DNA of 64,000 bases, taken from NCBI GenBank assembly GCA_964016885.1, contig OZ024757.1, positions 43,338,001-43,402,000 of the forward strand. The letters are read 5' to 3'. The notes below the pieces were generated by a model. That model saw only the letters and a list, made by a program, of their open reading frames with translations, did not search any database and was not told the origin of the DNA. The position numbers and the translations under genes were made by a program. Source of the stretch: Eledone cirrhosa. Its lineage: Eukaryota. Shown one piece after another: positions 1 through 35,417 of the stretch (positions within the stretch are counted from its first letter, which is position 1; every line of letters begins with the position of its first letter).

Positions 1-3000
1 CATGCGCCAAGGCCGCCGTACCGTTGTGCGCATGCGCAAAGACCGCTGGCCCTTAGTGCGCATGCGCCATGGCCGCCGGACCTTACTGCGCATGCGCTAA
101 GGCCGCCGGACCTTACTGCGCATGCGCCAAGGCCACTGGACTGTAGTGCGCATGCCCCACGGCCACTGGACAGTACTGCGCATGCGTCAAGGCCACCGGA
201 ACGTAGTGCGCATGCGCCAAGACCGCCGTACCGTTGTGCGCATGCGCCAAGGCCGCTGGACCGTACTGCGCATGCGCAAAGGCCACCGGAACGTAGGGCG
301 CATGCGCCAAGGCCGCCAGAACGTAGTGCGCATGCGCCAAGGCCGCCGGACCGTAGTGCGCATGCGCCAAGGCTGCCAGACCGTAGTGCGCATGCGCCAA
401 AGCCGCCGGACCGTACTGCGCATGTGCCAAGGCCACCGGAACGTAGTGCGCATGCGGGAAGGTCGCCGGACCGTAGTGCGCATGCGCCAAGGCCGCCGAA
501 CCGCATGCGCACAAAGGTCCGGCGGCCTTGGCGCATGCGCAGTACGGTTCGGCGGCCTTGGCGCATGCGCACGACGGTCTGGCGGCATTGGCACATGCGC
601 ACTACGGTCCGACGGCCTTGGGGCATGCGCAGTAAGATCCGGCGGTCTTGGAGCATGCGCACTACGGTCTGGCGGCCTTGGCACATGCGCACTACTGTCC
701 GACGGCCTTGGGGCATGCGCAGTACGATCCGGCGGTCTTGGATCATGCGCAGTACCGTTGCGTGGCCTTGGCGCATGCGCACTACGGTCCAGCTGCTTTG
801 GCGCATGCGCAGTACGGTTCGGCGGCCTTAGCGCATGCGCACTACGGTCCGGAGGGCTTGGCGCATGCGCAGTATGGTCCGGCGACCTTGACGCAGGCGC
901 ACTACGGTTCGGCGGCTCTGGCGCATGCGCACTGCGGTCCGGCGGCCTTGGCGCATGCGCAGTACGGTCCGGCGGCCTTAGCGCATGCGCAGTTCGGTAC
1001 TGGGACCTTGACGCATGCGCAGTACAGTCAGTCGGTCTTGGCGCATGCGCACTACGGTCCGGCGGCCTTGGCGCATGCGCAGTACGGTTCGGCGGCTTTG
1101 GCGCATGCGCACTACGGTCCGGCGGCCTTGGCACATGCGCAGTACGGTCCGGCGGCCTTAACGCATGCGCAGTTCGGTACTGCGACCTTGACGCATGCGC
1201 AGTACAGTCAGGCGGCCTTGGCGCATGCGCAGTACGGTCCGGCGGCCTTAGCGGATGCGCAGTTCGATACTGCGACCTTGACGCATGCGCAGTACAGTCA
1301 GGTGGCCTTGGCGCATGCGCAGTACGGTCCGGCGGCCTTGAAAATGGTTAAACTGCATCATAAATTACTAAAATAACTCAAAATGGCTAAATATGGACTG
1401 TACTGCGCATGCGCCAAGGCCACCAGGACGTAGTGCGCATGCGCCAAGTCCATCGGACCGTAGTGCGCATGCGCCAAGTCTGCCAGACCGTAGTGCGCAT
1501 GCGCCAAAGCCACCGGACCGTACTGCGCATGTGCCAAGGCCACCGAAACGTAGTGCGCATGCGGCAAGGTCGCCGGACCGTAGTGCGCATGCGCCAAGAC
1601 CGCCGGACCGTAGTGCGCGTGCGCCAAGGCCGCCAGACCGTAGTGCGCATGCGCCAAGGTCGCCGGGCCGTACTGCGCATGCGCCAAGGCCGCCGGGCTG
1701 TAGTGCGCATGCCCCAATGCTGCTAGACCGTAGTGCGCATGCACCAAAGCCACCGGACCGTAGTGCGCATGCGCCAAGGCTGCCGGACCGTAGTGCGCAT
1801 GCACCAAGGCCGCCGGACCGTTGTGCGCATGCGCAAAGAACGATGGCCATCTTAGTGAGCATGCGCCAAGGCCGCCGGAACGTACTGCGCATGCGCTAAG
1901 GCCGCCGGACCTTACTGCGCATGCGCCAAGGCCACTGGACAGTACTGCGCATGCGTCAAGGCCACCAGAACGTAGTGCGCATGCGCCAAGGCCGCCGTAC
2001 CGTTGTGCGCATGCGCAAAGACCGCTGGCCCTTAGTGCGCATGCGCCATGGCCGCCGGACCTTACTGCGCATGCGCCAAGGCCACTGGACTGTAGTGCGC
2101 ATGCCCCAAGGCCACTGGACAGTACTGCGCATGCGTCAAGGCCACCGGAACGTAGTGCGCATGCGCCAAGGCCGCCGTACCGTTGTGCGCATGCGCCAAG
2201 GCCACTGGACCGTACTGCGCATGCGCAAAGGCCACCGGAACGTAGTGCGCATGCGCCAAGGCCGCCGGACCGTAGTGCGCATGCGCCAAGGCTGCCAGAC
2301 CGTAGTGCGCATGCTCCAAGACCGCCGGATCTTACTGCGCATGCCCCAAGGCCGTCGGACCGTAGTGCGCATGTGCCAAGGCCGCCAGACCGTAGTGCGC
2401 ATGCGCCAAGGCCGCCGTACCGTACTGCGCATGCGCCAAGGCCGCCGGACCTTTGTGCGCATGCGGTTCGGCGGCCTTGGCGCATGCGCACTACGGTCCG
2501 GCGACCTTCCCGCATGCGCACTACGTTCCGGTGGCCTTGGCACATGCGCAGTACGGTCCGGCGGCTTTGGCGCATGCGCACTACGGTCTGGCAGCCTTGG
2601 CGCATGCGCACTACGGTCCGGCGGCCTTGGCGCATGCGCACTACGGTCCGGCGGCCTTGGCGCATGCGCACTACGTTCCGGTGGCCTTGGCGCATGCGCA
2701 GTACGCTCCAGTGGCCTTGGCGCATGCGCAGTAAGGTCCGGCGGCTTTGGCGCATGCGCACTATGGTCTGTCAGTCTTGGCGCATGCGCACTACGGTCCG
2801 GCGGCCTTGGCGCATGCGCACTACGTTCCGGCGGCCTTGGCGCATGCGCACTACGTTCCGGTGGCCTTTGCGCATGCGCAGTACGGTCCAGCGGCCTTGG
2901 CGCATGCGCACAACGGTACGGCGGCCTTGGCGCATGCGCACTACGTTCCGGTGGCCTTGACGCATGCGCAGTACTGTCCAGTGGCCTTGGGGCATGCGCA

Positions 3001-5814
3001 CTACAGTCCAGTGGCCTTGGCGCATGCGCAGTAAGGTCCGGCGGCCATGGCGCATGCGCACTAAGGGCCAGCGGTCTTTGCGCATGCGCACAACGGTACG
3101 GCGGCCTTGGCGCATGCGCACTACGTTCTGGTGGCCTTGACGCATGCGCAGTACTGTCCAGTGGCCTTGGCGCATGCGCAGTAAGGTCCGGCGGCCTTAG
3201 CGCATGCGCAGTACGTTCCGGCGGCCTTGGCGCATGCGCACTACGGTTCGGCGGCTCTGGCGCATGCGCACTACGGTCCGGCGGTCTTGGTGCATGCGCA
3301 GTACGGTACTGGGACCTTGATGCATGCGCAGTACAGTCAGGCGGCCTTGGCGCATGCGCACTACGGTCCGGCGGCCTTGGCGCATGCGCAGTACGGTCCG
3401 GCGGCCTTAGCGCATGCGCAGTTCGGTACTGCGACCTTGACGCATGCGCAGTACAGTCAGGCGGCCTTGGCACATGCGCACTACGGTCCGGCGGCCTTGG
3501 CGCATGCGCAGTATGGTCCGACGGCCTTGGCGCATGTGCACTATGTATCGGCGGCCTTGGCGCATGCGCACTACGGTTCGGCGGCTTTGGCGCATGCGCA
3601 CTACGATCCGGCGGCCTTGGCGCATGCGCACTACGGTCCGGCGGCCTTGGCGCATGCGCACTACGGTCATATGGCCTTGGCGCATGCGCACTACGGTACT
3701 GCGGCCTTGTCGCATGCGCAGTACGGTACTGCGGACTTGGCGCATGCGCAGTACGGTCAGGCGGCTTTGGCCCATGCGCACTACGGTCCGGCGGGCTTGG
3801 CGCATGCGCAGTATGGTCCGGCGACCTTGACGCATGCGCACTATGGTTCGGCGGCTCTGGCGCATGCGCACTGCGGTCCGGCGACCTTGGCGCATGCGCA
3901 ATACGGTCCGGCGGCCTTAGCGCATGCGCAGTTCGGTACTGGGACCTTGACGCATGCGCAGTACAGTCAGGCGACCTTGGCGCATGCGCACTACGGTCCG
4001 GCGGCCTTGGCGCATGCGCAGTACGGTCCGGCGGCCTTAACGCATGCGCAGTTCGGTACTGCGACCTTGACGCATGCGCAGTACAGTCAGGCGGCCTTGG
4101 CGCATGCGCATTACGGTCCGGCGGCCTTAGCGCATGCGCAGTTCAGTACTGCGACCTTGACGCATGCGCAGTACAGTCAGGTGGCCTTGGCGCATGCGCA
4201 CTACGGGCCCGCGTCTTTGGCGCATGCGCACTACGGCCCGGCGGCCTTGGCGCATGCGCAGTATGGTCCGGCGGCCTTGGCGCATGCGCACTACGGTTCG
4301 GCGGCTCTGGCGCATGCGCACTACGGTCCGGCGGTCTTGGTGCATGCGCAGTACGGTACTGGGACTTTGATGCATGCGCAGTACAGTCAGGCGGCCTTGG
4401 CGCATGCGCACTACGGTCCGGCGGGCTTGGCGCATGCGCAGTACGGTGCGCAAAGAACGATGGCCCTTAGTGCGCATGCGCCAAGCTAGCCGGAACGTAC
4501 TGCGCATGCGCTAAGGCCGCCGGACCTTACTGCGCATGCGCCAAGGCCACTGGACAGTACTGCGCATGCGTCAAGGCCACCGGAACGTAGTGCGCATGCG
4601 CCAAGGACGCCGTACCATTGTGCGCATGCGCAAAGACCGCTGGCCCTTAGTGCGCATGCGCCATGGCCGCCGGACCTTACTGCGCATGCGCTAAGGCCGC
4701 CGGGCCTTACTGCGCATGCGCCAAGGCCACTGGACTGTATTGCGCAGGCTCCAAGGCCAGCAGGACGTAGTGCGCATGCGCCAAGGCCATCGGACCGTAG
4801 TGCGCATGCGCCAAGTCTGCCAGACCGTAGTGCGCATGCGCCAAAGCCACCGGACCGTACTGCGCATGTGCCAAGGCCTCCGGAACGTAGTGCGCATGCG
4901 GTAAGGTCGCCGGACCGTAGTGCGCATGCGCCAAGACCGCCGGACCGTAGTGCGCGTGCGCCAAGGCCGCCAGACCGTAGTGCGCATGCGCCAAGGTCGC
5001 CGGGCCGTACTGCGCATGCGCCAAGGCCGCCGGGCTGTAGTGCGCATGCCCCAATGCTGCTAGACCGTAGTGCGCATGCACCAAAGCCGCCGGACCGTAG
5101 TGCGCATGCGCCAAGGCCGCCGGACCGTAGTGCGCATGCACCAAGGCCGCCGGACCGTTGTGCGCATGCGCAAAGAACGATGGCCCTTAGGGCGCATGCG
5201 CCAAGGCCGCCGGAACGTACTGCGCATGCGCTAAGGCTGCCGGAACTTACTGCGCATGCGCCAAGGCCACTGGACAGTACTGCGCATGCGCCAAGGCCAC
5301 CGGAACGTAGTGCGCATGCACCAAAGCCGCCGGACCGTAGTGCGCAGGCGCCAAGGCCGCCGGACCGTTGTGCGCATGCGCACTACGGTCTGGCAGCATT
5401 GGCGCATGCGCACTGCGGTCTGGCAGACTTGGCGCATGCGCACTACGGTCCGATGGCCTTGGCGCGTGCGCACTACGTTCTGGTGGCCTTGGCGCATGCA
5501 CAGTACGGTCCAGTGGCCTTGGCGCATGCGCACAACGGTCCGGCGGCCTTGGCGCATGCGCACTACGGTCCGGCAGCTTTGGTGCATGCGCACTACGGTC
5601 TGGCAGCATTGGCGCATGCGCACTACGGTCCGGCGGCCTTGGCGCATGCGCAGTACGGCCCGGCGGCCTTGGCGCATGCGCACTACGGTCCGGCGGCCTT
5701 GGCGCATGCGCACTACGGTCCGGCGGCGTTGGCGCATGCGCACTACGGTTCGGAGGCCTTGGCGCATGCGCACTACGGTCCGACGTCCTTGACGCATGTG
5801 CAGTACGGTCCGGA

Positions 5815-6080
5815 TGACTTTTTAGCCATTTTAAGCCTTTGTGTTGCCATATTTAGCCATTTTGAGTTATTTTAGTAATTTATGATGCAGTTTAACCATT
5901 TTAGAGCCATTTATAGTCATTTTAGACGTTTCAGTCGAGTTAGAGTCATTCTAGTCAATTATGATACGGTTTTAGCATTTTATTGTCACTTTAGTCATTT
6001 ATTATGCCGTCTTAGCCATTTTGTTGTAATTTCAGACATACATGATGACATTTCGGCCATGTTAGTCCTTTTTGATGACG
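5815..6080. repeat. AT-rich spacer of ~265 bp; near-identical copies at 8045-8312, 14328-14595 and 22048-22315, inverted fragment at 1341-1395
   Basis: The string gatgactttttagccattttaagcctt...gttagtcctttttgatgacg recurs almost verbatim. 1341-1395 is the reverse complement of ~5848-5902. Confidence 0.93.
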
Positions 6081-9000
6081 TGCCCATGCGCCAAGACCGC
6101 CAGACCGTACTGCGCACGCGCCGAGACGGCCTGATCGTAGTGCGCATGCGCCAAAGCCGCCTAACCGTAGTGCGCATGCGCCAAGGCCGCCGATACATAG
6201 TGCACATGCGCCAAGGCCGTCGGACCATACTGCGCATGCGCCAAGGGCGCCGGACAGTTGTGCGCATGCACCAAGGCCGCCTGACTTACTGCGCATGCGT
6301 CAAGGTCGCAGTACCGAACTGCGCATGCGCTAAGGCCTCCGGACCGTACTGCGCATGCGCCAAGGCCACCTGACTGTACTGCGCATGCGTGAAGGTCGCA
6401 GTACCGAACTGCGCATGCGCTAAGGCCGCCGGACCGTACTGCGCATGCGCCAAGGCCGCCGGACCGTAGTGCGCATGCGCCAAGGCCGCCTGACTGTACT
6501 GCGCATGCATCAAGGTCCCAGTACCGTACTGCGCATGCACCAAGACCGCCGGACCGTAGTGCGCATGCGCCAGAGCCGCCGAACCGTAGTGCGCATGCGC
6601 CAAGGCCGCCGGACCATACTGCGCATGCGCCAAGGCCGCCGGGCCGTAGTGCGAATCCTCCAAAGACGCGGGCCCGTAGTGCGCATGCGCCAAGGCCACC
6701 TGACTGTACTGCGCATGCGTCAAGGTCGCAGTACTGAACTGCGCATGCGCTAAGGCCGCCGGACCGTACTGCGCATGCGCCAAGGCCGCCGGACCGCAGT
6801 GCGCATGCGCCAGAGCCGCCGAACCGTAGTGCGCCTGCGTCAAGGTCGCCGAACCATACTGCGCATGCGCCAAGCCCGCCGGACCGTAGTGCGCATGCGC
6901 CAAAGCAGCTGGACCGTAGTGCGCATGCGCCAAGGCCACGGGACGGTACTGCGCATGCTCCAAGACCGCCGGATCGTACTGCGCATGCCCCAAGGCCGTC
7001 GGACAGTAGTGCGCATGTGCCAAGGCCGCCAGACCGTAGTGCGCATGCTCCAAGACCGCCGGATCTTACTGCGCATGCCCCAAGGCCGTCGGACCGTAGT
7101 GCGCATGTGCCAAGGCCGCCAGACCGTAGTGCGCATGCGCCAAGGCCGCCGAACCGTACTGCGCATGCGCCAAGGCCGCCGGACCTTTGTGCGCATGCGG
7201 TTCGGCGGCCTTGGCGCATGCGCACTACGGTCCGGCGACCTTCCCGCATGCGCACTACGTTCCGGTGGCCTTTGCGCATGCGCAGTACGGTCCAGCGGCC
7301 TTGGCGCATGCGCACAACGGTACGGCGGCCTTGGCGCATGCGCACTACGTTCCGGTGGCCTTGACGCATGCGCAGTACTGTCCAGTGGCCTTGGGGCATG
7401 CGCACTACAGTCCAGTGGCCTTAGCGCATGCGCAGTAAGGTCCGGCGGCCATGGCGCATGCGCACTAAGGGTCAGCGGTCTTTTCGCATGCGCACAACGG
7501 TCCGGCGGCCTTGGCGCATGCACACTACGGCCCGGCGGCCTTGGCGCCTGCGCACTACGGTCCGGCGGCTTTGGTTCATGCGCACTACGGTCTGGCAGCA
7601 TTGGCGCATGCGCACTACGGTCTGGCAGACTTGGCGCATGCGCACTACGGTCCGATGGCCTTGGCGCGTGCGCACTACGTTCTGGTGGCCTTGGCGCATG
7701 CACAGTACGGTCCAGTGGCCTTGGCGCATGCGCACAACGGTCCGGCGGCCTTGGCGCATGCGCACTACGGTCCGGCAGCTTTGGTGCATGCGCACTACGG
7801 TCTGGCAGCATTGGCGCATGCGCACTACGGTCCGGCGGCCTTGGCGCATGCGCAGTACGGCCCGGCGGCCTTGGCGCATGTGCACTACGGTCTGGCGGCA
7901 TTGGCGCATGCGCACTACGGTCCGGCGGCCTTGGCGCATGCGCACTACGGTCCGGCGGCGTTGGCGCATGCGCACTACGGTTCGGAGGCCTTGGCGCATG
8001 CGCACTACGGTCCGACGTCCTTGACGCATGTGCAGTACGGTCCGGATGACTTTTTAGCCATTTTAAGCCTTTGTGTTGCCATATTTAGCCATTTTGAGTT
8101 ATTTTAGTAATTTATGATGCAGTTTAACCATTTTAGAGCCATTTATAGTTATTTTAGACGTTTCAGTCGTGTTAGAGTCATTCTAGTCAATTATGATACG
8201 GTTTTAGCATTTTATTGTCACTTTAGTCATTTATTATGCCGTCTTAGCCATTTTGTTGTAATTTCAGACATACATGATGACATTTCGGCCATGTTAGTCC
8301 TTTTTGATGACGTGCCCATGCGCCAAGACCGCCAGACCGTACTGCGCACGCGCCGAGACGGCCTGATCGTAGTGCGCATGCGCCAAAGCCGCCTAACCGT
8401 AGTGCGCATGCGCCAAGGCCGCCGATACATAGTGCACATGCGCCAAGGCCGTCGGACCATACTGCGCATGCACCAAGGGCGCCGGACCGTTGTGCGCATG
8501 CGCCAAGGCCACCTGACTGTACTGCGCATGCGTCAAGGTCGCAGTACCGAACTGCGCATGCGCTAAGGCCGCCGGACCGTAGTGCGCATGCACCAAGGCC
8601 GCCGGACCGTTGTGCCCATGCGCAAAGAACGATGGCCCTTAGTGCGCATGCGCCAAGGCCGTCGGAACGTACTGCGCATGCGCTAAGGCCGCCGGACCTT
8701 ACTGCGCATGCGCCAAGGCCACTGGACAGTACTGCGCATGCGCCAAGGCCACCGGAACGTAGTGCGCATGCGCCAAGGCCGCCGTACCGTTGTGCGCATG
8801 CGCCAAGGCCGCTGGACCGTACTGCGCATGCGCAAAGGCCACCGGAACGTAGTGCGCATGCGCCAAGGCCGCCGGAACGTAGTGCGCATGCGCGAAGGCC
8901 GCCGGACCGTAGTGCGCATGCGCCAAAACTGACAGACCATAGTGCGCATGCGCCAAAGCCGCCGGACCTTACTGCGCATGCGCCAAGGCCACTGGAGCGT

Positions 9001-12000
9001 ACTGCGCATGCGCCAAGGCCACCGTAACGTAGTACGCATGCGCCAAGGCCGCCGGACCGTAGTGCGCATGCGCCAATGCTGCCAGACCGTAGTGCGCATG
9101 CACCAAAGCCGCCGGACCGTAGTGCGCAGGCGCCAAGGCCGCCGGGCCGTAGTGTGCATGCGCCAAGGCCGCCGGACCGTTGTGCGCATGCGCAAAGACC
9201 GCTGACCCTTAGTGCGCATGCGCCATGGCCGCCGGACCTTACTGCGCATGCGCTAAGGCCGCCGGACCTCACTGCGCATGCGCCAAGGCCACTGGACTGT
9301 ACTGCGCATGCGCCAAGGCCACCAGGACGTAGTGCGCATGCGCCAAGGCCATCGGACCGTAGTGCGCATGCGCCAAGTCTGCCAAACCGTAGTGCGCATG
9401 CGCCAAAGCCACCGGACCGTACTGCGCATGTGCCAAGGCCACCGGAACGTAGTGCGCATGCGGCAAGGCCGCCGGACCGTAGTGCGCATGAGCCAAGACC
9501 GCCGGACCGTAGTGCGCGTGCGCCAAGGCCGCCAGACCGTAGTGCGCATGCGCCAAGGTCGCCGGGCCGTACTGCGCATGCGCCAAGGCCGCCGGGCTGT
9601 AGTGCGCATGCTCCAATGCTGCTAGACCGTAGTGCGCATGCACCAAAGCCGCCGGACCGTAGTGCGCATGCGCCAAGGCCGCCGGACCGTAGTGCGCATG
9701 CACCAAGGCTGCCGGACCGTTGTGCGCATGCGAAAAGAACGATGGCCCTTAGTGCGCATGCGCCAAGGCCGCCGGAACGTACTGCGCATGCGCTAAGGCC
9801 GCCGGACCTTACTGCGCATGCGCCAAGGCCACTGGACAGTACTGCGCATGCGTCAAGGCCACCGGAACGTAGCGCGCATGCGCCAAGGCCGCCGTACCAT
9901 TGTGCGCATGCGCAAAGACCGCTGGCCCTTAGTGCGCATGCGCCATGGCCGCCGGACCTTACTGCGCATGCGCTAAGGCCGCCGGGCCTTACTGCGCATG
10001 CGCCAAGGCCACTGGACTGTACTGCGCAGGCGCCAAGGCCAGCAGGACGTAGTGCGCATGCGCCAAGGCCATCGGACCGTAGTGCGCATGCGCCAAGTCT
10101 GCCAGACCGTAGTGCGCATGCGCCAAAGCCACCGGACCGTACTGCGCATGTGCCAAGGCCACCGGAACGTAGTGCGCATGCGGCAAGGTCGCCGGACCGT
10201 AGTGCGCATGCGCCAAGACCGCCGGACCGTAGTGCGCGTGCGCCAAGGCCGCCAGACCGTAGTGCGCATGCGCCAAGGTCGCTGGGCCGTACTGCGCATG
10301 CGCCAAGGCCGCCGGGCTGTAGTGCGCATGCCCCAATGCCGCTAGACCGTAGTGCGCATGCACCAAAGCCGCCGGACCGTAGTGCGCATGCGCCAAGGCC
10401 GCCGGACCGTAGTGCGCATGCACCAAGGCCGCCGGACCGTTGTGCGCATGCGCAAAGAACGATGGCCCTTAGTGCGCATGCGCCAAGGCCGCCGGAACGT
10501 ACTGCGCATGCGCTAAGGCTGCCGGACCTTACTGCGCATGCGCCAAGGCCACTGGACAGTACTGCGCATGCGCCAAGGCCACCGGAACGTAGTGCGCATG
10601 CACCAAAGCCGCCGGACCGTAGTGCGCAGGCGCCAAGGCCGCCGGACCGTTGTGCGCATGCGCAATGACCGCTGGCCCTTAGTGCGCATGCGCCATGGCC
10701 GCCGGACCTTACTGCGCATGCGATAAGGCCACTGGACCGTAGTGCGCATGCGCTAAGGCTGCCGGACCTTACTGCGCATGCGCCAAGGCCACTGGACAGT
10801 ACTGCGCATGCGCCAAGGCCACCGGAACGTAGTGCGCATGCGCCAAGGCCGCCGGAACGTAGTGCGCATGCGGGAAGGTCGCCGGACAGTAGTGCGCATG
10901 CGCCGAGGCCACCGAACCGCATGCGCACAAAGATCCGGCGGCCTTGGCGCATGCGCAGTACGGTTCGGCGGCCTTGGCGCATGCGCACTACGGTTCGGCG
11001 GCTTTGGCGCATGCGCACTACGATCCGGCGGCCTTGGCGCATGCGCACTACGGTCCGGCAGCCTTGGCGCATGCGCACTACGGTCATGTGGCCTTGGCGC
11101 ATGCGCACTACGGTACTGCGGCCTTGTCGCATGCGCACTACGGTCCGGTGGCTTTGGCGCATGCGCACTACGGTCCGGCGACCTTGGCGCATGTGCAGTA
11201 CGGTCCGGTGGCCTTGGCGCATGCGCACTACGGTCCAGCTGCTTTGGCGCATGCGCAGTACGGTTCGGCGGCCTTAGCGCATGCGCACTACGGTCCGGCG
11301 GGCTTGGCGCATGCGCAGTATGGTCCGGCGACCTTGACGCATGCGCACTACGGTTCGGCGGCTCTGGCGCATGCGCACTGCGGTCCGGCGGCCTTGGCGC
11401 ATGCGCAGTACGGTCCGGCGGCCTTAGCGCATGCGCAGTTCGGTACTGGGACCTTGACGCATGCGCAGTACAGTCAGGCGGCCTTGGCGCATGCGCACTA
11501 CGGTCCGGCGGCCTTGGCGCATGCGCACTACGGTCCGGCGGCCTTGGCACATGCGCAGTACGGTCCGGCGTCCTTAACGCATGCGCAGTTCGGTACTGCG
11601 ACCTTGACGCATGCGCAGTACAGTCAGGCGGCCTTGGCGCATGCGCAGTACGGTCCAGCGGCCTTAGCGCATGCGCAGTTCGGTACTGCGACCTTGACGC
11701 ATGCGCAGTACAGTGAGGTGGCCTTGGCGCATGCGCACTACGGTCCGGCGTCTTTGGCGCATGCGCAGTATGGTCCGGCGGCCTTAGCGCATGCGCACTA
11801 CGGTTCGGCGGCTCTGGCGCATGCGCACTACGGTCCGGCGGTCTTGGTGCATGCGCAGTACGGTACTGGGACCTTGATGCATGCGCAGTACAGTCAGGCG
11901 GCCTTGGCGCATGCGTACTACGGTCCGGCGGCCTTGGCACATGCGCACTACAGTCCGGCGGCCTTAACGCCTGCGCAGTTCGGTACTGCGACCTTGACGC

Positions 12001-15000: not shown

Positions 15001-17789
15001 CCGCCTGACTGTACTGCGCATGCATCAAGGTCCCAGTACCGTACTGCGCATGCACCAAGACCGCCGGACCGTAGTGCGCATGCGCCTGAGCCGCCGAACC
15101 GTAGTGCGCATGCGCCAAGGCCGCCGGACCATACTGCGCATGCGCCAAGGCCGCCAGGCCGTAGTGCGCATGCGCCAAAGACGCCGGGCCGTAGTGCGCA
15201 TGCGCCAAGGCCACCTGACTGTACTGCGCATGCGTCAAGGTCGCAGTACCGAACTGCGCATGCGCTAAGGCCGCCGGACCGTACTGCGCATGCGCCAAGG
15301 CCGCCTGACTGTACTGCGCATGCGTCAAGGTCGCAGTACCGAACTGCGCAGGCGTTAAGGCCGCCGGACTGTACTGCGCATGTGCCAAGGCCGCCGGACC
15401 GTAGTGCGCATGCGCCAAGGCCGCCTGACTGTACTGCGCATGCATCAAGGTCCCAGTACCGTACTGCGCATGCACCAAGACCGCCGGACCGTAGTGCGCA
15501 TGCGCCAGAGCCGCCGAACCGTAGTGCGCATGCGCTAAGGCCGCCGGACCATACTGCGCATGCGCCGAAGACGCCGGACCGTAGTGCGCATGCGCCAAGG
15601 CCACCTGACTGTACTGCGCATGCGTCAAGGTCGCAGTACCGAACTGCGCATGCGCTAAGGCCGCTGGACCGTACTGCGCATGCGCCAAGGCCGCCTGACT
15701 GTACTGCGCATGCGTCAAGGTCGCAGTACCGAACTGCGCATGCGTTAAGTACGCCGGACCGTACTGCGCATGTGCCAAGGCCGCCGGACCGTAGTGCGCA
15801 TGCGCCAAGACCGCCGGACCGTAGTGCGCATGCGCCAAGGCCGCCTGACTGTACTGCGCATGCGTCAAGGTCCCAGTACCGAACTGCGCATGCGCTAAGG
15901 CCGCCGGACCGTACTGCGCATGCGCCAAGGCCGCCGGACCGCAGTGCGCATGCGCCAGAGCCGCCGAACCCTAGTGCGTATGCGTCAAGGTCGCCGGACC
16001 ATACTGCGCATGCGCCAAGCCCGCCGGACCGTAGTGCGCATGCGCTAAGGCCGCCGAACCGTACTGCGCATGCGCCAAAGCAGCTGGACCGTAGTGCGCA
16101 TGCGCCAAGGCCGCCGGACCGTACTGCACATGCGCCAAGTACGCAGGACCGTAGTGCGCATGCGCCAAAGCCACCGGACCGTAGTGCGCATGCGACAAGG
16201 CCGCAGTACCGTAGTGCGCATGCGCCAAGGCCACATGACCGTAGTGCGCATGCGCCAAGGCTGCCGGACCGTAGTGCGCATGCGCCAAGGCCGCCGGATC
16301 GTAGTGCGCATGCGCCAAAGCCGCCGAACCGTAGTGCGCATGCGCCAAGGCCGCCGATACATAGTGCACATGCGCCAAGGCCGTCGGACCATAGTGCGCA
16401 TGCGCCAAAGCCGCCGGACCGTAGTGCGCATGTGCCGAGGCCGCCTGACTGTACTGCGCATGCATCAAGGTCGCAGTACCGAACTGCGCATGCGCTAAGG
16501 CCACCGGACCGTACTGCGCATGCGCCAAGGCCACCTGACTGTACTGCGCATGCGTCAAGGTCGCAGTACCGAACTGCGCATGCGCTAAGGCCGCCGGACC
16601 GTACTGCGCATGCGCCAAGGCCGCCGGACCGTAGTGCGCATGCGCCAAGACCGCCTGACTGTACTGCGCATGCATTAAGGTCCCAGCACCGTACTGCGCA
16701 TGCACCAAGACCGCCGGACCGTAGTGCGCATGCGCCAGAGCCGCCGAACCGTAGTGCGCATGCGCCAAGGCCGCCGGACCATACTGCGCATGCGCCAAGG
16801 CCGCCGGACCGTAGTGCGCATGCGCCAAAGACGCCGGACCGTAGTGCGCATGCGCCAAGGCCACCTGACTGTACTGCGCATGCGTCAAGGTCGCAGTACC
16901 GAACTGCGCATGCGCTAAGGCCGCCGGACCGTACTGCGCATGCGCCAAGGCCGCCTGACTGTACTGCGCATGCGTCAAGGTCGCAGTACCGAACTGCGCA
17001 TGCGTTTAGGCCGCCGGACCGTACTGCGCATGTGCCAAGGCCGCCGGACCGTAGTGCGCATGCGCCAAAGCCGCCGAACCGTACTGCGCATGCGCCAAGG
17101 CCGCCGGACCGTAGTGCGCATGCGCCAAGGCCGCCTGACTGTACTGCGCATGCGTCAAGGTCCCAGTACCGAACTGCGCATGCGCTAAGGCCGCCGGACC
17201 GTACTGCGCATGCGCCAAGGCCGCCGGACCGCAGTGCGCATGCGCCAGAGCCGCCGAACCGTAGTGCGCATGCGTCAAGGTCGCCGGACCATACTGCGCA
17301 TGCGCCAAGCCCGCCGGACGGTACTGCGCATGCTCCAAGACCGACGGATCGTACTGCGCATGCCCCAAGGCCGTCGGACCGTAGTGCGCATGTGCTAAGG
17401 CCGCCAGACCGTAGTGCGCATGCTCCAAGACCGCCGGATCTTACTGCGCATGCCCCAAGGCCGGTGGACCGTAGTGCGCATGTGCCAAGGCCGCCAGACC
17501 GTAGTGCGCATGCGCCAAGGCCGCCGAACCGTACTGCGCATGCGCCAAGGCCGCCGGACCTTTGTGCGCATGCGGTTCGGCGGCCTCGGCGCATGCGCAC
17601 TACGGTCCGGCGACCTTCCCGCATGCGCACTGCGTTCCGGTGGCCTTGGCGCATGCGCACAACGGTCCGGCGGCCTTGGCGCATGCGCACTACGGTCCGG
17701 CGGCCTTGGCGCATGCGCACTACGGTTCGGCGGCTTTGGTGCATGCGCACTACGGTCTGGCAGCATTGGCGCATGCGCACTACGGTCCG

Positions 17790-18905
17790 TCTAATTTATG
17801 ATGACGTTTCATCCATTTTATTCATTTCTGAAGACCTTTTAGACATTTTATTGTCTTTTTAGTCATTATGATGCCATTTCATCCATTTTAGTGCAATTGT
17901 AGCCATTTACGATGTCGTTTTACCCATTTTAGTGATTTATAATGACGTTTAAGCAATTTTATGTAGTTTTAGTCATTTACGATATCGTTTTAGCCATTTT
18001 AGTCATTGATGATGACGTTTTAGTCATTTATGATGCAGTTTTAGCCATTCTGTTGTAATATGGCAACATAAATGATTAAATGGCTCTAAAATGGCTAAAA
18101 CGGACTCATATTTGACTAAAATGACTCTAAAACGACTAAAATGACTCGTAAATGAGTAAAACGGCATAAAAATTGACTAATATGACACTAAAATGGCTAA
18201 ATCAGCATCATAATTCACTAAAATGACTCTAAAACGAGTAAAATGACAAAAATGACTCGTAAATGAGTAAAACGGTATCATAAATGACTAAAATAACTCT
18301 AGAAAGGCTACAACAGCATCATAAATGATTAAAATGACTCTAAAACGACTAAAACGTCTAAAATGACAAAAATGGCTCTAATATAGCTTAAACTGCATCA
18401 TAAATGACTAAAACGACTAAAATGACTCCGAAATGGCTAAAAATGACATTATAAATGACTAAAATGACGAAATTGGCTAAAACGTCATGATAAATGACTT
18501 AAATGTCTTAACCGTCATCATAAATGGCTAAAAGGACATCGTAAATGAATAAAATTACACTAAAATTGCTTAAACGTCATCATAATGACTGAAACGGCTA
18601 AAACGACATCGTAAATGGCTAAAATGACACTAAAGTGGCTAAAACGGACTGTTAAATTGCTAAATTGTCTCTAAAATGGCTAAAACGTCTTCATAAATAA
18701 ATAAAATGGCTAAAACGTCATCATAAATGACTACAACGTCATCATAAACGACTAAAATGGCAAAAACGACATCGTATATTACTAAAATTACACTAAATTG
18801 ATTGAAATGGAATCATGATAACTAAAAAGACAATATAATGTCTAAAACCTCTTCATAAATGAATAAAATGACTAAATAGGACTGTTAAATGACTAAAATG
18901 ACTAA
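17790..18905. repeat. AT-rich satellite block (10-bp subunits TTTTAGYCAT, ~30-bp unit) with an internal strand flip at ~18060
   Basis: Repeated ttttagtcat/ttttagccat/ttatgatgacg. Switches to the A-rich strand at ctgttgtaatatggcaaca. Nearly identical to 22400-23517. Confidence 0.92.
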
Positions 18906-21900
18906 ACGACCGTACTGCGCATGCGCCAAGGCCGCCGGACCGTACTGCGCATGCGCCAAGGACGCCGGACCGTAGTGCGCATGCGCCAAAGCCACCGGAC
19001 TGTAGTGCGCATGCGCCATGGTCGCATGACCGTAGTGCGCATGCGCCAAGGCCTCCCTACCGTAGTGCGCATGGGCCAAAGCCGCCTGACCGTACTGCGC
19101 ATGCGCCATGTCCGCAGTACCGTACTGCGCATGCGACAAGGCCGCAGTACCGTAGTGCGCATGCGCCAAGGCCACATGACCGTAGTGCGCATGCGCCAAG
19201 GCCGCTGGACCGTAGTGTGCATGCGCCAAGGCCGCCGGATCGTAGTGCGCATGCGCCAAAGCCGCCGAACCGTAGTGCGCATGCGCCAAGGCCGCCGATA
19301 CATAGTGCACATGCGCAAAGTCCGTCGGACCATACTGCGCATGCGCCAAGACCGCCAGACCGTACTGCGCACGCGCCGAGACGGCCGGACCGTAGTGCGC
19401 ATGCGCCAGAGCCGCCGAACCGTAGTGCGCATGCGCCAAGGCCGCTGGACTATACTGCGCATGCGCCAAGGCGGCCGGACCGTACTGCGCATGCGCCAAG
19501 GCCGCCTGACTGTACTGCGCATGCGTCAAGGTCGCAGTACCGAACTGTGCATGCGCTAGGGCCGCCGGACCGTACTGCGCATGCGCCAAGGCCGCCGGAC
19601 CGTAGTGCGCATGTGCCAAGGCCGCCTGACTGTACTGCGCATGCGCCAAAGACGCCGAACCATCGTGCCCATGCGCCAAGACCGCCAGACCGTACTGCGC
19701 ACGCTCCTAGACGACCTATTCGTACTGCGCATGCCCCAGGGCCGTCGGACCGTAGTGCGCATGCGCCAAAGCCGTCGAACCATAGTGCGCATGTGCCATG
19801 GCCGCATGACCGTAGTGCGCATGCGCCAAGGCCGCCCGACCGTAGTGCGCATGGGCCAAAGCCGCCCGACCGTACTGCGCATGAGCCAAGTCCGCAGTAC
19901 CGTACTGCGCATGCGACAAGGCCGCAGTACCGTACTGCGCATGCGAAACGGCCGCAGTACCCTAGTGCGCATGCGCCAAGGCCATCGGACCGTAGTGCGC
20001 ATGAGTCAAGGCCGCCGGATGGTAGTGCGCATGCGCCAAGGCCACCGGACCGTACTGCGCATGTGCCAAGGCCGCCGGACCGTAGTGCGCATGCGCCAAA
20101 GCCGCTGAACCGTGGTGCGCATGCGCCCAGGCCGCCGGACCGTAGTGCGCATGCGCCAGGGCCGCCTGACTGTACTGCGCATGCGTCAAGGTCCCAGTAC
20201 CGATCTGCGCATGCGCTAAGGCATCCGGACCGTAGTGCGCATGCGCCAAGGCGGCCGGACCGTAGTGCGCATGCGCCAAGGCCGCCGGATCATACTGCGC
20301 ATGCGCGAAGACTGCCGGACCGTAGTGCGCATGCGCCAAGGCCGCCTGACTGTACTGCGCATGCGTCAACGTCGCAGTACCGAACTGCGCATGCGCCAAG
20401 GCCGCCGGACCGTACTGCGCATGCGCCAAGGCCGCCGGACCGTAGTGCGCATGCGCCAAGTCCGCCTGACTGTACTGCGCATGCATCAAGGTCCCAGTAG
20501 CGTACTGCGCATGCGCCAAGGCCGCCGGACCGTAGTGCGCATGCGCCAGAGCCGCTGAACCGTAGTGCGCATGCGCCAAGGCCACCGGACCATAATGCGC
20601 ATGCGCCAAGGCCGCCGGACCGTAGTGCGCATGCGCCAAGGCCGCCTGACTGTACTGCGCATGCGTCAAGGTCGCAGTACCGAACTGCGCATGCGCCAAG
20701 GCCGCCGGACCGTACTGCGCATGCGCCAAGGCCGCCGGACCGTAGTGCGCATGCGCCAAGGCCGCCTGACTGTACTGCGCATGCATCAAGGTCCCAGTAG
20801 CGTACTGCGCATGCGCCAAGGCCGCCGGACCGTAGTGCGCATGCGCCAGAGCCGCTGAACCGTAGTGCGCATGCGCCAAGGCCACCGGACCATACTGCGC
20901 ATGCGCCAAGGCCGCCGGACCGTAGTGCGCATGCGCCAAGGCCGCCTGACTGTACTGCGCATGCGTCAAGGTCGCAGTACCTAACTGCGCATGCGCTAAG
21001 GCCGCCGGACCGTACTGCGCATGCGCCAAGGCCGCCTGACTGTACTGCGCATGCGTCAAGGTCGTAGTACCGAACTGCGCATGCGCTAGGGCCGCCGGAC
21101 CGTACTGCGCATGCGCCAAGGCCGCCGGACCGTAGTGCGCATGCGCCAAGGCCGCGTGACTGTACTGCGCATGCATCAAGGTCCCAGTACCGTACTGCGC
21201 ATGCACCAAGGCCGCCGGACCGTAGGGCACATGCGCCAGAGCCTTAGCGCATGCGCAGTAAGGTCCGGCGGCCTTGGCGCATGAGCACTAAGGGCCAGCG
21301 GTCTTTGCGCATGCGCACAACGGTCCGGCGGCCTTGGCGCATGCGCACTACGGTCCGGCGGCCTTGGCGCATGCGCACTACGGTCCGACGGCCATGGCGC
21401 ATGTGAACTATGTATCGGCGGCCTTGGCGCATGCGCACTACGGTCCGGCGGCCTTGGCGCATGAGCAGTACGGCCCGGCGACCTTGGCGCATGCGCACTA
21501 CGGTCTAGCGGCCTTGGCGCACGCGCACTACGGTCCGGCGGTCTTGGCGCATGCGCACTACGGTCCGGCGGTCTTGGCGCATGCGCACTACGGTCCGGCG
21601 ACCTTGCCGCATGCGCACTACGTTCCGGTGGCCTTGGCACATGCGCAGTACGGCCCGGTGGCTTTAGCGCATGCGCACTACGGTCTGGCAGACTTGGCGC
21701 ATGCGCACTACGGTCCGATGGCCTTGGCGCATGCGCACTACTTTCTGGTGGCCTTGGCGCATGCGCAGTACGGTCCAGTGGCCTTGGCGCATGCGCACAA
21801 CGGTCCGGCGGCCTTGGCGCATGCGCACTACGGTCCGGCGGCTTTTGTGCATGCGCACTACGGTCTGGCAGCATTGGCGCATGCGCACTACGGTCCGGCG

Positions 21901-22047
21901 GCCTTGGCGCATGCGCAGTACGGCCCGGCGGCCTTGGCTCATGCGCACTACGGTCCGGCGGCCTTGGCGCATGCGCACTACGGTTCGGAGGCCTTGGCGC
22001 ATGCGCACTACGGTCCGACGTCCTTGACGCATGTGCAGTACGGTCCG

Positions 22048-25000
22048 GATGACTTTTTAGCCATTTTAAGCCTTTATGTTGCCATATTTAGCCATTTTTG
22101 AGTCATTTTAGTAATTTATGATTAAGTTTAACCATTTTAGAGCCATTTATAGTCATTTTAGACGTTTCAGTCGTGTTAGAGTCATTCTAGTCAATTATGA
22201 TACGGTTTTAGCATTTTATTGTCACTTTAGTCATTTATTATGCCGTCTTAGCCATTTTGTTGTAATTTCAGTCATACATGATGACATTTCGGCCATGTTA
22301 GTCCTTTGTGATGACGTTTAACAATTTTAGTCATTCATAATGACGTTTTATTCATTTTAGTCACTTATGATGTCATTTTAGCCCTTTTAGTGTTATTTTA
22401 GTAATTTATGATGACGTTTCATCCATTTTATTCATTTCTGAAGACCTTTTAGACATTTTATTGTCTTTTTAGTCATTATGATGCCATTTCATCCATTTTA
22501 GTGCAATTGTAGCCATTTACGATGTCGTTTTACCCATTTTAGTGATTTATAATGACGTTTAAGCAATTTTATGTAGTTTTAGTCATTTACGATATCGTTT
22601 TAGCCATTTTAGTCATTGAGGATGACGTTTTAGTCATTTATGATGCAGTTTTAGCCATTCTGTTGTAATATGGCAACATAAATGATTAAATGGCTCTAAA
22701 ATGGCTAAAACGGACTCATATTTGACTAAAATGACTCTAAAACGACTAAAATGACTCGTAAATGAGTAAAACGGCATAAAAATTGACTAATATGACACTA
22801 AAATGGCTAAATCAGCATCATAATTCACTAAAATGACTCTAAAACGAGTAAAATGACAAAAATGACTCGTAAATGAGTAAAACGGTATCATAAATGACTA
22901 AAATAACTCTAGAAAGGCTACAACAGCATCATAAATGATTAAAATGACTCTAAAACGACTAAAACGTCTAAAATGACAAAAATGGCTCTAATATAGCTTA
23001 AACTGCATCATAAATGACTAAAACGACTAAAATGACTCCGAAATGGCTAAAAATGACATTATAAATGACTAAAATGACGAAAGTGGCTAAAACGTCATGA
23101 TAAATGACTTAAATGTCTTAACCGTCATCATAAATGGCTAAAAGGACATCGTAAATGAATAAAATTACACTAAAATTGCTTAAACGTCATCATAATGACT
23201 GAAACGGCTAAAACGACATCGTAAATGGCTAAAATGACACTAAAGTGGCTAAAACGGACTGTTAAATTGCTAAATTGTCTCTAAAATGGCTAAAACGTCT
23301 TCATAAATAAATAAAATGGCTAAAACGTCATCATAAATGACTACAACGTCATCATAAACGACTAAAATGGCAAAAACGACATCGTATATTACTAAAATTA
23401 CACTAAATTGATTGAAATGGCATCATGATAACTAAAAAGACAATATAATGTCTAAAACGTCTTCATAAATGAATAAAATGACTAAATAGGACTGTTAAAT
23501 GACTAAAATGACTAAACGACCGTACTGCGCATGCGCCAAGGCCGCCGGACCGTACTGCGAATGCGCCAAGGCCGCCGGACCGTAGTGCGCATGCGCCAAG
23601 GCCACCGAACCGTACTGCGCATGAGCCAAAGCCGCCGAACCGTAGTGCGCATGCGCCAAGGCCGCCGAACCGTACTGCGCATGCGCCAAGGCCGCCGCAC
23701 CGTACTGCGCATGCGCCAAGACCGCCGGATCGTACTGCGCATGCAATTATGATACGGTTTAAGCATTTTATTGTCACTTTAGTCATTTATTATGCCGTGT
23801 TAGCCATTTTGTTGTAATTTCAGTCATTTATGATGACATTTCGGCTATTTTAGTCCTTTTTGATGACGTTTAACAATTTTAGTCATTCATAATGACGTTT
23901 TATCCATTTTAGTCACTTATGATGCCATTTTAGCCCTTTTAGTGTCATTTTAGTAATTTATGATGACGTTTTATCCATTATATTCATTTCTGAAGACATT
24001 TTAGACATTTTATTGTCTTTTTAGTCATTATGATGCCATTTCAGCCATTTTAGTGCAATTGTAGCCATTTGCGATGTCGTTTTACCCATTTTAGTGATAT
24101 ATAATGACGTTTAAGCAATTTTTTGTAGTTTTAGTTATTTACGATATCGTTTTAGCCATTTTAGTCATTGATGATGACGTTTTAGTCATTTATGATGCAG
24201 TTTTAGCCATTCTGTTGTAATATGGCAACATAAATGATTAAATGGCTCTAAAATGGCTAAAACAGCATCATATTTGACTAAAATGACTCTAAAACGACTA
24301 AAATGACTCGTAAATGAGTAAAACGGCATAAAAATTGACTAAAATGACACTAAAATGGCTAAAACAGCATCATAATTGACTAAAATGACTTTAAAACGAG
24401 TAAATTGACAAAAATGACTCGTAAATGAGTAAAACGGCATCATAAATGACTGAAATAACTCCAGAACGGCTACAACAGCATCATAAATGATTAAAATGAC
24501 TCTAAAATGACAAAAATGGCTCTATTATAGCTTAAACTGCATCTAAAATGACTAAAACGACTAAAATGACTCCGAAATGGCTAAAAATGGCATCATAAAT
24601 GACTAAAATGACTAAAGTGGCTAAAACGTCATGATAAATGACTTAAATGTCTTAACCGTCATCATAAATGACTAAAATGGCTAAAAGGACATCGTAAATA
24701 AATAAAATTACACTAAAATTGCTTAAACGTCATCATAAACGACTAAAATTGCTAAAACGACATCGTAAATGGCTAAAATGACACCAAAAATGGCTAAAAC
24801 GGACTGTTAAATTGCTAAATTATCTCTAAAATGGCTAAAACGTCTTCATAAATAAATAAATAAAATGGCTAAAACGTCATCATAAATGACTACAACGTCA
24901 TCATAAACGACTAAAATGGCAAAAACGACATCGTAAATTACTAAAATTACACTAAATTGATTGAAATGGCATCATGATAACTAAAAAGATAATATAATGT

Positions 25001-25066
25001 CTAAAACGTCTTCATAAATGAATAAAATGAATAAATAGGACTGTTAAATGACTAAAATGGCTAAAC
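22048..25066. repeat. Two further AT-rich satellite blocks (22048-23517 and 23745-25066) separated by a short GC-satellite island
   Basis: Same sequence and same internal flip (~22670, ~24220) as 17790-18905. The second block is more diverged. Confidence 0.92.
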
Positions 25067-26105
25067 GACCGTACTGCGCATGCGCAAAGGCCGCCGGACC
25101 GTACTGCGCATGCGCCAAGGCCGCCGGACCGTAGTGCGCATGCGCCAAGGCCGTCAAACCGTACTGCGCCAAGGCCGCCGGACCGTACTGCGCATGCGCC
25201 AAGGCCGCCGGACCGTACTGAGCATGCGCCAAAGCCGCCGGACCATACTTCGCATGCGCCAAGGCCGCCGGACCGTAGTGTGCATGCGCCAAGGCCGCCG
25301 AACCGTACTGCGCATGCGCTAAGGCCGCTGGACCGTAGTGCGCATGCGCCAAGACCGCCGGACCGTACTGCGCCCGCTGGATAGTACTGCGCATGCGCCA
25401 AGGCCGCCGGACCTTGGCGCATGCGCAGTACGGTCCGGCGGCCTTGGCGCATGCGCACTACGGTCCGGCGGCCTTGGCGCATGCGCAGTACGGTTGTTTA
25501 ACTATTTTAGTCATTTAACAGTCCGTTTTAGCCATTCTATTCAATGATGAAGACGTTTTAGACATTTTATTGTCTTTTTAGTCATTATGATGCCATTTCA
25601 GTCATTTTAGTGTAATTTTAGTAATTTACGATGTCGTTTTAGCCATTTTAGTCATTTATGATGACATTTTAGCCATTCTGTTGTAATTTCAGTCGTTTAT
25701 GATGACGTTTTAGACATTTAAGTCCTTTTTGATGCGTTTTAGCCATTTTAATCATTTATGTTGCCATACTGCGCATGCGCCAAGGCCGCCGGACCGTAGT
25801 GCGCATGCGCCAAAGCCGCCGACCGTAGTGCGCATGCGCCAAGGCCGCCGGACCGTACTGCGCATGCGCCAAGGCCGCCGGACCGTAGTGCGCATGCACC
25901 AAGACGCCGGACCGTACTGTGCATGCGCCAAAGCCGCCGGACCGTAGTGCGCATGCACCAAGGCCGCCGGACCGTACTGTGCATGCGCCAAAACCGCCGA
26001 ACCGTAGTGCGCATGCGCCAAGGCCACCGGACCTGACTGCGCATGCGCCAAGGCCGCCGGACCGTACTTTGCATGCGCCAAGGCAGCCGGACCGTAGTGC
26101 GCATG

Positions 26106-27860
26106 CCATTTCAGTCATTTTAGTGTAATTTTAGTAATTTACGATGTCGTTTTAGCCAATTTAGTCATTTATGATTTCGTTTTAGCCATTCTATTCATTG
26201 ATGATGACGTTTTAGTCATTTATGATGCCGTTTTAGCCATTCTGTTGTAATTTCAGTCGTTTATGATGACGTTTTAGCCATTTTAATCATTTATGTTGCC
26301 ATATTTAGCCTTTTTGAGTCATTTTAGTCATTTATGATGCAGTTTAACCATTTTAAGTCCTTTTTGATGACGTTTTAGCCATTTTAGTCATTTATGATGA
26401 CGTTTAAGCAATTTTGTTGTAATTTCAGTCATTTATAATGACGTTTTAGCCATTTTAGAGTCTATTTAGCAATTTAACAGTCCTTTTTAGTCATTTTATT
26501 CATTTATGAAGATGTTTAACGTATTTTAGTGTCAATTTATCATTAATGATGCCGTTTTAGACATTTATGATGACGTTTTAGCTATTTTAGTCATTTATGA
26601 TGACGTTTTAGCCATCTTACCCTTTTTTGATGACGTTTTAGCCATTTTAGAGTCAATTTAGCAATTTAACAGTCCGTTTTAGCCATTTTATTCATTAATG
26701 AAGACGTTTTAGACATTTTATTGCCTTTTTAGTCATTTATGATGCGGTTTTAGCCATTTTAAAGTGATTTTAGTCGTTTTAGAGTCATTTTAGTCAATTA
26801 TGATGCCGTTTTAGCCATTTTAGTCATTTGAGATGCTGTTTTAGCCATTTTGTTGTAATTTCAGTCATTCATGATGAGGTTTTAGCCATTTTAGTGTCAA
26901 TATAGTCATTTACGATGTCGTTTTAGCCATTTTAGTCATTTATGGTGACGTTTAAGCAAATTTAGTATAATTTTATTCATTTACGATGTCGTTTTAGCCA
27001 TTTTAGTCATTTAAGCTATTTTAGTCATTTTTTATGACGTTCTAATCATTTATTTTAATGTTTTAGTCATTTCAGTCATTTATGATGCTGTTTTCACCAT
27101 AGTAATTTATGAATCCGTATTAGTCTTTATAGTATCATTTCCGCCATTTAAGTTTTCGTCATTTTAGAGCAATTTTATTTATTTAAGTTGTCGTTTCAGC
27201 CAATTGAGAGTCGTTTTAGTCATTTTTGTGTCAATTTCGCCATTTTGCAGTCATTTTAGTCATTCAAGGAGCCGTTTTAGAGATTTTATTCATTTAAGAG
27301 TCGTTTTAGTCACTCAATGAGCGTTCTAGCTATTTTAGGGTCGATTTAGCAATTTTACAATCGTTTTAGTTATTTTGGGAGACGTTTCAGCCATTTTAGA
27401 GTCATTTTAGCCATTTTACAGTCGTTTTAGTCATTTAAGGAGCCGTTTTAGCCATTTTAGTGTCATTTTACAGTCGTTTTAATAATGTTAGGGTCATTTT
27501 ATCATTTAAGATGTCATTTTAGCCCTGTTAGTGTCGTTTTAGCTATTTAAGAGTCATTTCAGTCATTTGCAGATCCGTTTTAGCAATTTTAGTGTTATTT
27601 TAGAAATCTAAGGTGTCATTTTAGCCATTTTACAGTCGTTTCAGTTATTTAAGGAGCCGTTTTAGCCATTTAAGTATCGACTTGCCCATGTTTCAGTCAT
27701 TTCAATAATTTAAGGTCGTTTAAAGGGTTGCTTTAGATATCTTCAGTTCTTTTATGCATTTTATTATGAGTTATTTTAGTCATTTTAAGTCTCGTTTTAG
27801 TAATTTAAAGAGTTGATGTAGCTAATTCAAGATTTGTTTTAGTCATTTAAAGAGTTTATC
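26106..27860. repeat. Terminal AT-rich satellite, progressively degenerate
   Basis: The ttttagycat periodicity persists but decays into unique AT-rich sequence at ~27.9 kb. Confidence 0.85.
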
Positions 27861-28318
27861 AAATATAATAAATGTGTTAAATTCATCTATTTATCATGAA
27901 AAAAGACCATCAAAATGCAAAAGAATTTTGATACACATTCATCTTCAGCATTAATAATGAGCATATATAGACCTCGGAAGTTCTTAGTCATTTAAATATT
28001 TGAATTTAAGTATTTTTATTGCCAAAAATAATGGCTGAAAAGAAAACATAAAATAAAATAAAGACAAATTTTGTGGAAATATAATTTATCACCAAAAATA
28101 TTAAAATATATAAATTAGAACCCAGATGTCTTCATTAACCTAGAATGTTCCTGAAAGACTTAGTTATAGCAGTGGGGCTAGGGTTTGGGGGGTGCACACA
28201 CATTTGTTTAATTTGTATTTTACTTTTAATTGTTTATCTTTTTTATAAATGAATAAAAAAAATGTAATTGTTGAATAGTTTAAGATATGAAATCTTGCTG
28301 GAATGTCCAGATATGATG

Positions 28319-35348: not shown

Positions 35349-35417
<69 letters not shown>

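Follow-up and report, generated by a model that had tools for sequence, protein, structure and literature searches.

A conserved NRF1-type palindrome in a 30-bp satellite array of the octopod Eledone cirrhosa

Why does one short palindrome vary so much less than the rest of the monomer in a tandem array of the octopod Eledone cirrhosa, and could a DNA-binding factor of the NRF1/EWG/P3A2 family account for it? The array is a composite satellite occupying positions 1..26106, on both strands, of a window of 64,000 nucleotides (GCA_964016885.1, contig OZ024757.1, positions 43,338,001 to 43,402,000 of the forward strand; coordinates below are those of the window), and it extends beyond the left edge of that window. 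An earlier note, made from the letters alone, had described about 700 palindromes spaced every 30 bp. A scan that put no weight on the core, allowing at most 10 mismatches over 30 bases, recovers 695 non-overlapping monomers, which account for 20,850 of the initial 26,106 bp. The perfect palindrome GCGCATGCGC occurs only 438 times, not about 700, and 671 sites match it with at most one mismatch. The intervals between exact cores are 30 bp in 270 of 437 cases and multiples of 30 in 414 of 437, but 16 strand switches, together with 8 AT-rich inserts within the array (64-1470 bp each, 5,035 bp in total), split the 30-bp register into 25 runs. Exact copies of GCGCATGCGC are absent beyond position 26105, that is, from the other 38 kb of the window, and GCGCNTGCGC-type sites number 460 in the array and 0 in the rest of the window. 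A 12-bp palindrome occurs only 20 times, because the dyad partner of the outer T is C.

The commonest monomer is the GC-rich GGACCGTAGTGCGCATGCGCCAAGGCCGCC; the mean identity of the monomers is 90.8%, and segment duplicates reach 97-99.8%, as in a long head-to-tail, non-coding satellite under concerted homogenization. Among the 695 monomers 290 are distinct, with 37 distinct cores versus 226 distinct 20-bp linkers. The mean inter-monomer distance is 4.8-5.6 at all lags from 1 to 24, without a regular higher-order period. The stretch is best explained as the edge of an octopod satellite block in which this GC-rich repeat is interleaved with a more diverged AT-rich repeat.

The earlier note also took the core to be better conserved than the linker, and per-position variation bears this out: non-majority bases amount to 4.2% in the core versus 13.5% in the linker over all 695 monomers, and to 5.2% versus 15.8% over the 290 distinct ones. 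The conserved stretch comprises positions 10-18 of the monomer (TGCGCATGC), off-centre relative to the palindrome at positions 11-20: the T at position 10, just outside the palindrome, differs in 4 of 695 monomers, whereas the last two palindrome bases (19 and 20) vary by 10.9% and 13.8%, close to the linker, and to that extent the claim of a conserved ten-base unit fails. Substitution events were counted on 200 random minimum-spanning trees with G/C, CpG and homodimer context as covariates, after which the core/linker rate ratio is 0.53 for positions 11-20 and 0.41 for positions 10-18. Because the window 10-18 was picked after the data had been seen, simulations were also scored by the best of 30 windows; with that statistic included, 0 of 210 neutral simulations matched the observed ratio, in arrays holding about 178 distinct monomers as against the 290 observed. 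Near-identical segment copies show 12 differences in the core versus 50 elsewhere (P 0.007; 207 of the 563 monomers with full flanks used), and the conservation profile replicates between array halves (rho 0.90), between strands (rho 0.93) and in maximum-likelihood site rates. Grouping of monomers by their flanks at a threshold of 0.3 merged 470 of them into one group and was left unused. The core is therefore conserved beyond chance, with about half the linker substitution rate after shared descent and base context are taken into account.

The assignment of this core to the NRF1/EWG/P3A2 family stands as an exact match: 10 of 10 bases agree with the NRF1 consensus given by Liu et al. 2023 (PMC10810270), and all 10 are the majority allele in the array. 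In the cited parts of that study, binding by NRF1 falls 2-12-fold when one half-site is changed and is no more than weak for 6 of 8 mirrored double changes (Table 2), and R206 contacts the inner C/G pairs. The coldest sites of the array include C14, A15 and G17, corresponding to the inner pairs contacted by R206, and the central AT is also among the coldest. Eight NRF1 affinity changes were tabulated against allele counts, too few and too asymmetric for a test. Homologues of NRF1 are reported in fly and sea urchin; in the passages cited, an oyster NRF1 gene has been assayed (PMC13562396) and NRF motifs are enriched in unmethylated annelid promoters (PMC11292947). The array thus shares with a family site its full consensus, its cold inner C/G pairs and central AT and, suggestively, a scarcity of double half-site damage; it differs in that one half is under more constraint than the other and the outer T is constrained as well.

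Such a scarcity would be predicted for a dimeric binder. Only 5 of the 290 distinct monomers are hit in both halves of the palindrome, compared with 33 in the left half only and 93 in the right half only (Fisher P 0.003; P 0.017 under a swap null). Among 30 adjacent window pairs the deficit is confined to the core, and when 315 window pairs are ranked, each of the 12 most negative spans it. Regional clustering was rejected as its source, left and right hits being spread along the array; fold-back conversion was rejected as well, since none of the 290 distinct monomers has a compensating mirror change. Across tests the P value of the deficit is about 0.02-0.09, which is suggestive only. Taken together, the deficit, the lack of mirror compensation and the unspared transitions are more in keeping with a protein reading two half-sites than with fold-back repair or Z-DNA.

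A switch by CpG methylation, also proposed in the earlier note, has left no germline trace: linker transitions per site are 8.35 at CpG and 7.85 at non-CpG G/C, and the array shows no sign of germline CpG-to-TpG decay. The observed/expected ratio of CpG is 1.25 in the array versus 0.45 beyond 28 kb, and duplicated flank repeats differ at 8.9% of CpG sites versus 2.4% of other C (3.7-fold; about 12 CpG events). Since the array, unlike the flank repeats, has no excess of CpG transitions, it is probably unmethylated in the germline, a state compatible with NRF1 binding. Three structural suggestions of the same note fared no better. At 10.5 bp per turn, 30 bp corresponds to 2.86 turns rather than about 3 and rotates neighbouring sites by about 51 degrees on free DNA; this spacing and the 16 inversions are at odds with a protein-binding lattice on one face. 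Z-DNA, which would keep the alternation of purines and pyrimidines and tolerate transitions over transversions, is not favoured because transitions that preserve the alternation are depleted together with transversions: per site, the core has 5.25 transitions and 5.12 transversions at CpG and 2.10 and 3.63 at other G/C, compared with 8.35 and 9.20, and 7.85 and 7.86, respectively, in the linker.

As the best single explanation, we tentatively favour a germline-unmethylated satellite whose turnover favours monomers that keep an NRF1/EWG-type site, NRF1-family binding being predicted from the sequence pattern. The unmethylated core would be bound by a dimeric factor, for which the octopod NRF1/EWG orthologue is the most plausible candidate; it would anchor on the stronger TGCGCA half and tolerate damage to a single half-site only. 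Binding-competent monomers would then be retained, or serve as templates, more often, by biased conversion, biased amplification or selection on the whole array. The weakest step is that the bound array may form a long CpG-island-like, possibly transcribed domain, like the human subtelomeric 29-bp NRF1 repeats.

Several points weigh against NRF1-family binding as the explanation. Off-centre conservation is unlike the prediction for a symmetric dimer: the left half is hit in 38 and the right half in 98 of the 290 distinct monomers, and mirror alleles are unequal (C20>T in 74 copies versus G11>A in 2; G19>A in 48 versus 13 for its mirror), with the pairs 11/20 and 12/19 not individually significant as tree events (P 0.10 and 0.21). 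In the NRF1 crystal both half-sites are read alike, and the cited text of PMC10810270 names no base contact for the nearly invariant outer T. One strong and one weak half-site would reconcile the right-end drift with the NRF1 model; no asymmetric NRF1 logo from in-vivo data was found in the cited passages of PMC3820735. The deficit of double hits is less pronounced on trees (7.5 observed versus 13.4 expected, P about 0.06) and was reached in 12, 16 and 19 of 500 matched simulations and in 45 of 500 less closely matched ones. The lower copying of variants at positions 10-18 (2.3 copies per variant versus 5.4 elsewhere; median P 0.005 over 200 trees), which like the double-hit deficit points towards a binding constraint, comes from a test uncalibrated by simulation. 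In Octopus bimaculoides, the cited part of Macchi et al. (PMC9476566) describes repeats as largely unmethylated and satellites as relatively higher. The step of biased turnover must be assumed, because selection on one monomer among hundreds should be very weak, and all of the array statistics come from one array in one assembly.

Two other accounts come next in likelihood, equal to each other and each unlikely. Under one, the match to NRF1 is incidental and some other factor reads the asymmetric word TGCGCATGC, perhaps with flanking TA and AA. Zinc-finger genes have expanded in cephalopods, and a lineage-specific zinc-finger or satellite-binding protein would fit. Such a factor would explain why the best low-rate windows are 8-18, 7-18 and 10-18 and not 11-20, why negative association peaks to the left of the dyad (windows 9-13 and 15-19), and why T10 hardly varies when its dyad partner is C and not A. 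Against it, every base of the NRF1 consensus is the majority allele, positions 19 and 20 have somewhat fewer events (16.9 and 13.0) than the linker G/C mean of 19.7, and mutual exclusion of the two halves suits a dimer. The other account dispenses with function altogether: the alternating purine-pyrimidine tract would be a mutation cold spot, or better repaired, in an ordinary drifting satellite. The three coldest G/C sites (11, 14 and 17) share a TGC/GCA context, most linker G/C lie in GG/CC pairs, the cold zone stops where the alternation stops, and recent differences are already depleted, all as a cold spot would have it. Against this, linker G28 has 23 events, whereas positions 12, 13 and 18, with the same trinucleotide GCG/CGC, have 9-11; TGC is not appreciably colder than GCC and CCA, either in the flank repeats (1.8% versus 2.2% and 2.1%, few events) or in the AT-rich repeat (5.9% versus 7.7% and 4.5%, few events); and a reduced rate by itself would lead one to expect neither a smaller number of copies per variant nor the deficit of double hits.

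Lower in likelihood, and distinctly improbable, is a role of DNA structure, in which neighbouring self-complementary cores would pair while single-stranded (or form Z-DNA), stall forks and promote amplification or fold-back repair. The predicted single-strand fold does pair core with core (-63.4 kcal/mol per 240 nucleotides, z -2.0; equalled by 8 of 200 shuffles), one of the 16 strand switches lies exactly in a core, and nematode satellites are described, in the cited portion of PMC3694981, with conserved boxes at monomer junctions. A structural constraint sits poorly, however, with the unequalized mirror alleles and the absence of compensated mirror pairs, with a T10 that is unpaired in the dyad and nevertheless nearly invariant, with the depletion of alternation-keeping transitions, with a whole monomer no more self-complementary than its shuffles, and with a core dyad that holds only 1 of 5 distinct GC-to-GC switches. 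Least likely by far is that fold-back chimeras in reads or assembly produced the inverted mosaic or the pattern of variation. The many inversions and the segment pairs at 97-99.8% identity would suit such an artefact; yet none of the 20 segment pairs of at least 300 bp is 100% identical, the conservation profile replicates between halves and strands as given above, and a single inversion junction (J1) is present in five copies, in both orientations, each with private substitutions, a recurrence that favours real duplication over chimeric reads.

Among known systems, the closest working analogue appears to be the human subtelomeric 29-bp NRF1 repeat, with the CENP-B box as an evolutionary analogue; homology is not claimed. 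The human 61-29-37 subtelomeric repeats, which contain the promoter of TERRA (telomeric repeat-containing RNA), show NRF1 binding by chromatin immunoprecipitation that rises on demethylation, according to the cited sections of Le Berre et al. 2019 (PMC6600276), and share with the present array a CpG-rich tandem unit of about 30 bp with NRF1-type sites. As described there, the human 29-bp unit carries a pair of putative sites that each depart from the consensus by two bases, and it is highly methylated in telomerase-positive lines, whereas the octopod array has one perfect consensus site per unit, no CpG decay, 695 units and inversions. Tandem TTAGGG or TTAGG is absent from the window, which thus contains no telomeric array. 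With the CENP-B box of alpha and mouse minor satellites the array has in common a short protein-binding motif kept in a fast-changing monomer (cited passages of PMC5615363 and PMC4107277), although that box is 17 bp long and the motif here is a 10-bp palindrome of a general transcription factor in a 30-bp monomer. Meloidogyne satellites likewise interleave unrelated satellites in one array and have short conserved motifs (Mestrovic et al. 2013, PMC3694981, in the part cited); their boxes are obligatory at junctions, whereas the breakpoints here are distributed along the monomer, and no similarity between the two repeats is detectable (P 0.74). On present evidence the array would work like a factor-site satellite, and membership in the TERRA-promoter or CENP-B systems is not claimed. 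The papers listed in literature searches, largely outside subscription journals, include no account of this satellite or of a cephalopod NRF1-site satellite; two matches for the motif together with 'satellite' are oligonucleotide or probe sequences.

Other origins of the repeat were considered and rejected. Evidence against a coding repeat is variation without codon periodicity (judged by eye) and blocks that alternate in strand; against a structured RNA or tRNA array, 0 Rfam matches at the gathering score and 0 tRNAs in the window; against a prokaryotic origin, 0 exact matches of the 30-bp pattern (one exact pattern only) in a genome-contig collection; and against derivation of the monomer from an inverted duplication of a 15-mer, a best self-complement register of 14 of 30 where shuffles average 16.5. 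Monomer position 9, just 5' of the conserved core, shows a stable dimorphism (G in 394 monomers, 57%; C in 296, 43%) without periodicity along the array.

The array grows through duplication of segments that span several monomers, the copies lying in either orientation: stretches of 0.3-1.6 kb recur as plus and minus copies that are 97-99.8% identical. From the left edge, a GC block of 16 plus-strand units (18..497) meets inversion junction J1 (498..520, 2-bp microhomology; further copies in both orientations at 2447-2469, 7181-7203, 10914-10936 and 17556-17578) and is followed by 27 minus units (521..1330), a 64-bp gap comprising a monomer end and a short piece of AT-rich repeat (1331..1394), 35 plus units (1395..2446) and 66 minus units (2470..4449), which end at the only direct minus-to-plus junction (4450-4461). 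Thirty plus units (4462..5361) precede 15 minus units (5362..5811), the switch J2 near 5375 falling exactly in the 10-bp core palindrome; a 260-bp AT-rich insert (5812..6071), with copies about 99% identical at 8044-8303 and 14326-14585, then leads to 37 plus units (6072..7180), 28 minus units (7204..8043), 87 plus units (8304..10913), 113 minus units (10937..14325), 99 plus units (14586..17555) and 7 minus units (17579..17788). An inverted duplicate within this region (10965-12609 versus 14713-16357) is 98.8% identical. Next come an AT-rich segment with an inversion inside near 18065 (17789..18906; 99.7% identical to 22402-23559), 78 plus units (18907..21246) ending at J3 (near 21243, at a GGCC dyad, 3-bp microhomology) and 26 minus units (21267..22046). 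Two internally inverted AT-rich segments, of 1470 bp (22047..23516) and 1339 bp (23727..25065), flank 7 plus units (23517..23726). The array closes with short GC blocks (25066..25496; 10 plus units with two deletions, then 3 minus units past J4 at about 25414), a 264-bp AT-rich insert (25497..25760) and a last block of 11 plus units (25761..26106) that joins the AT-rich flank by 4-bp microhomology.

Of the 15 distinct junctions, one is internal to the AT-rich repeat and the other 14 involve the GC repeat. Their microhomology measures 0-10 bp and reaches at least 2 bp in 10 of 15; all were read by eye, and their lengths are approximate because the AT-rich donors have diverged. Since most breakpoints have 1-4 bp of microhomology, we infer microhomology-mediated joining or template switching at the breakpoints. 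Between 497 and 25760, all 8 plus-to-minus switches are direct GC-to-GC joints, whereas AT-rich DNA intervenes in 7 of the 8 switches from minus to plus, an asymmetry due in part to shared descent. The AT-rich repeat consists of 8-13-bp A-tract subunits with periods of 9, 20, 21, 30, 41, 71 and 111, has internal inversions of its own, and continues past the array as a flank that fades outward (26107..27900). A common origin with the GC monomer was rejected for lack of detectable similarity (alignment score 20 versus 21.8 for shuffles, the P of 0.74 given above). Most of its periods (20, 21, 30, 41, 71 and 111) are near multiples of 10, and it may be curved or nucleosome-phasing DNA. It shows no CpG excess (5.1% versus 6.8%, few events).

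The right 36 kb of the window are animal DNA with microsatellites, fragments of long interspersed nuclear elements (LINEs) recognized by reverse transcriptase matches, and two transporter exons. These two open coding exons (30703..32819, minus strand; splice sites read near 32465 and 31307) belong to an SLC35A-type nucleotide-sugar transporter whose best named relatives are from Octopus sinensis (78%) and Argonauta hians (74%), other named molluscs reaching at most 56%, which points to an octopod, probably one other than O. sinensis; the 3' end of the gene lies about 2.8 kb from the satellite edge, and no exon upstream of the two was located. A LINE reverse-transcriptase region is present in two inverted copies, 98% identical (39564-40531 and 54556-55523), presumably RTE-like, with related fragments near 34150-36370 and 60950-61540; an open reverse-transcriptase frame of 435 residues (37626-38933, minus strand) belongs to a different LINE. 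A 94-bp tandem repeat in 16 copies with 98% matches (49154-50660) adjoins a GGT-rich microsatellite of 1.7 kb (47328-49071). At the right edge, an element at 62861-64000, which we take from its appearance to be Penelope-type, contains inverted copies of 312 bp, 96% identical, with a weak match to GIY-YIG between them (63090-63470) that scores below the Pfam cut-off.

Protein constraint is hard to tell from drift in short satellite motifs, the CENP-B box being the main example, and this array offers a compact test: a candidate factor with a solved structure, measured affinities for single and double changes, and 290 natural monomer variants. Should binding fail, the locus would still illustrate clearly a cold spot and the mixing of two satellites through microhomology. 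Should binding prove true, a dosage-relevant regulator of mitochondrial and housekeeping genes would have hundreds of perfect sites in one block, in a group for which the papers listed gave no description of a satellite. A further reading, doubtful at this stage, is that the satellite has captured a housekeeping transcription factor whose occupancy keeps perfect sites over tens of kilobases or more unmethylated and open, biases copying and builds a chromosome-scale domain. Such a domain might serve as a subtelomeric promoter like that of TERRA, be associated with a centromere, or act as a sink for NRF1 and titrate it. If that were so, the variant spectrum of a satellite in Eledone cirrhosa, an invertebrate, would record how strongly a general transcription factor binds each variant, in other words its binding energetics.

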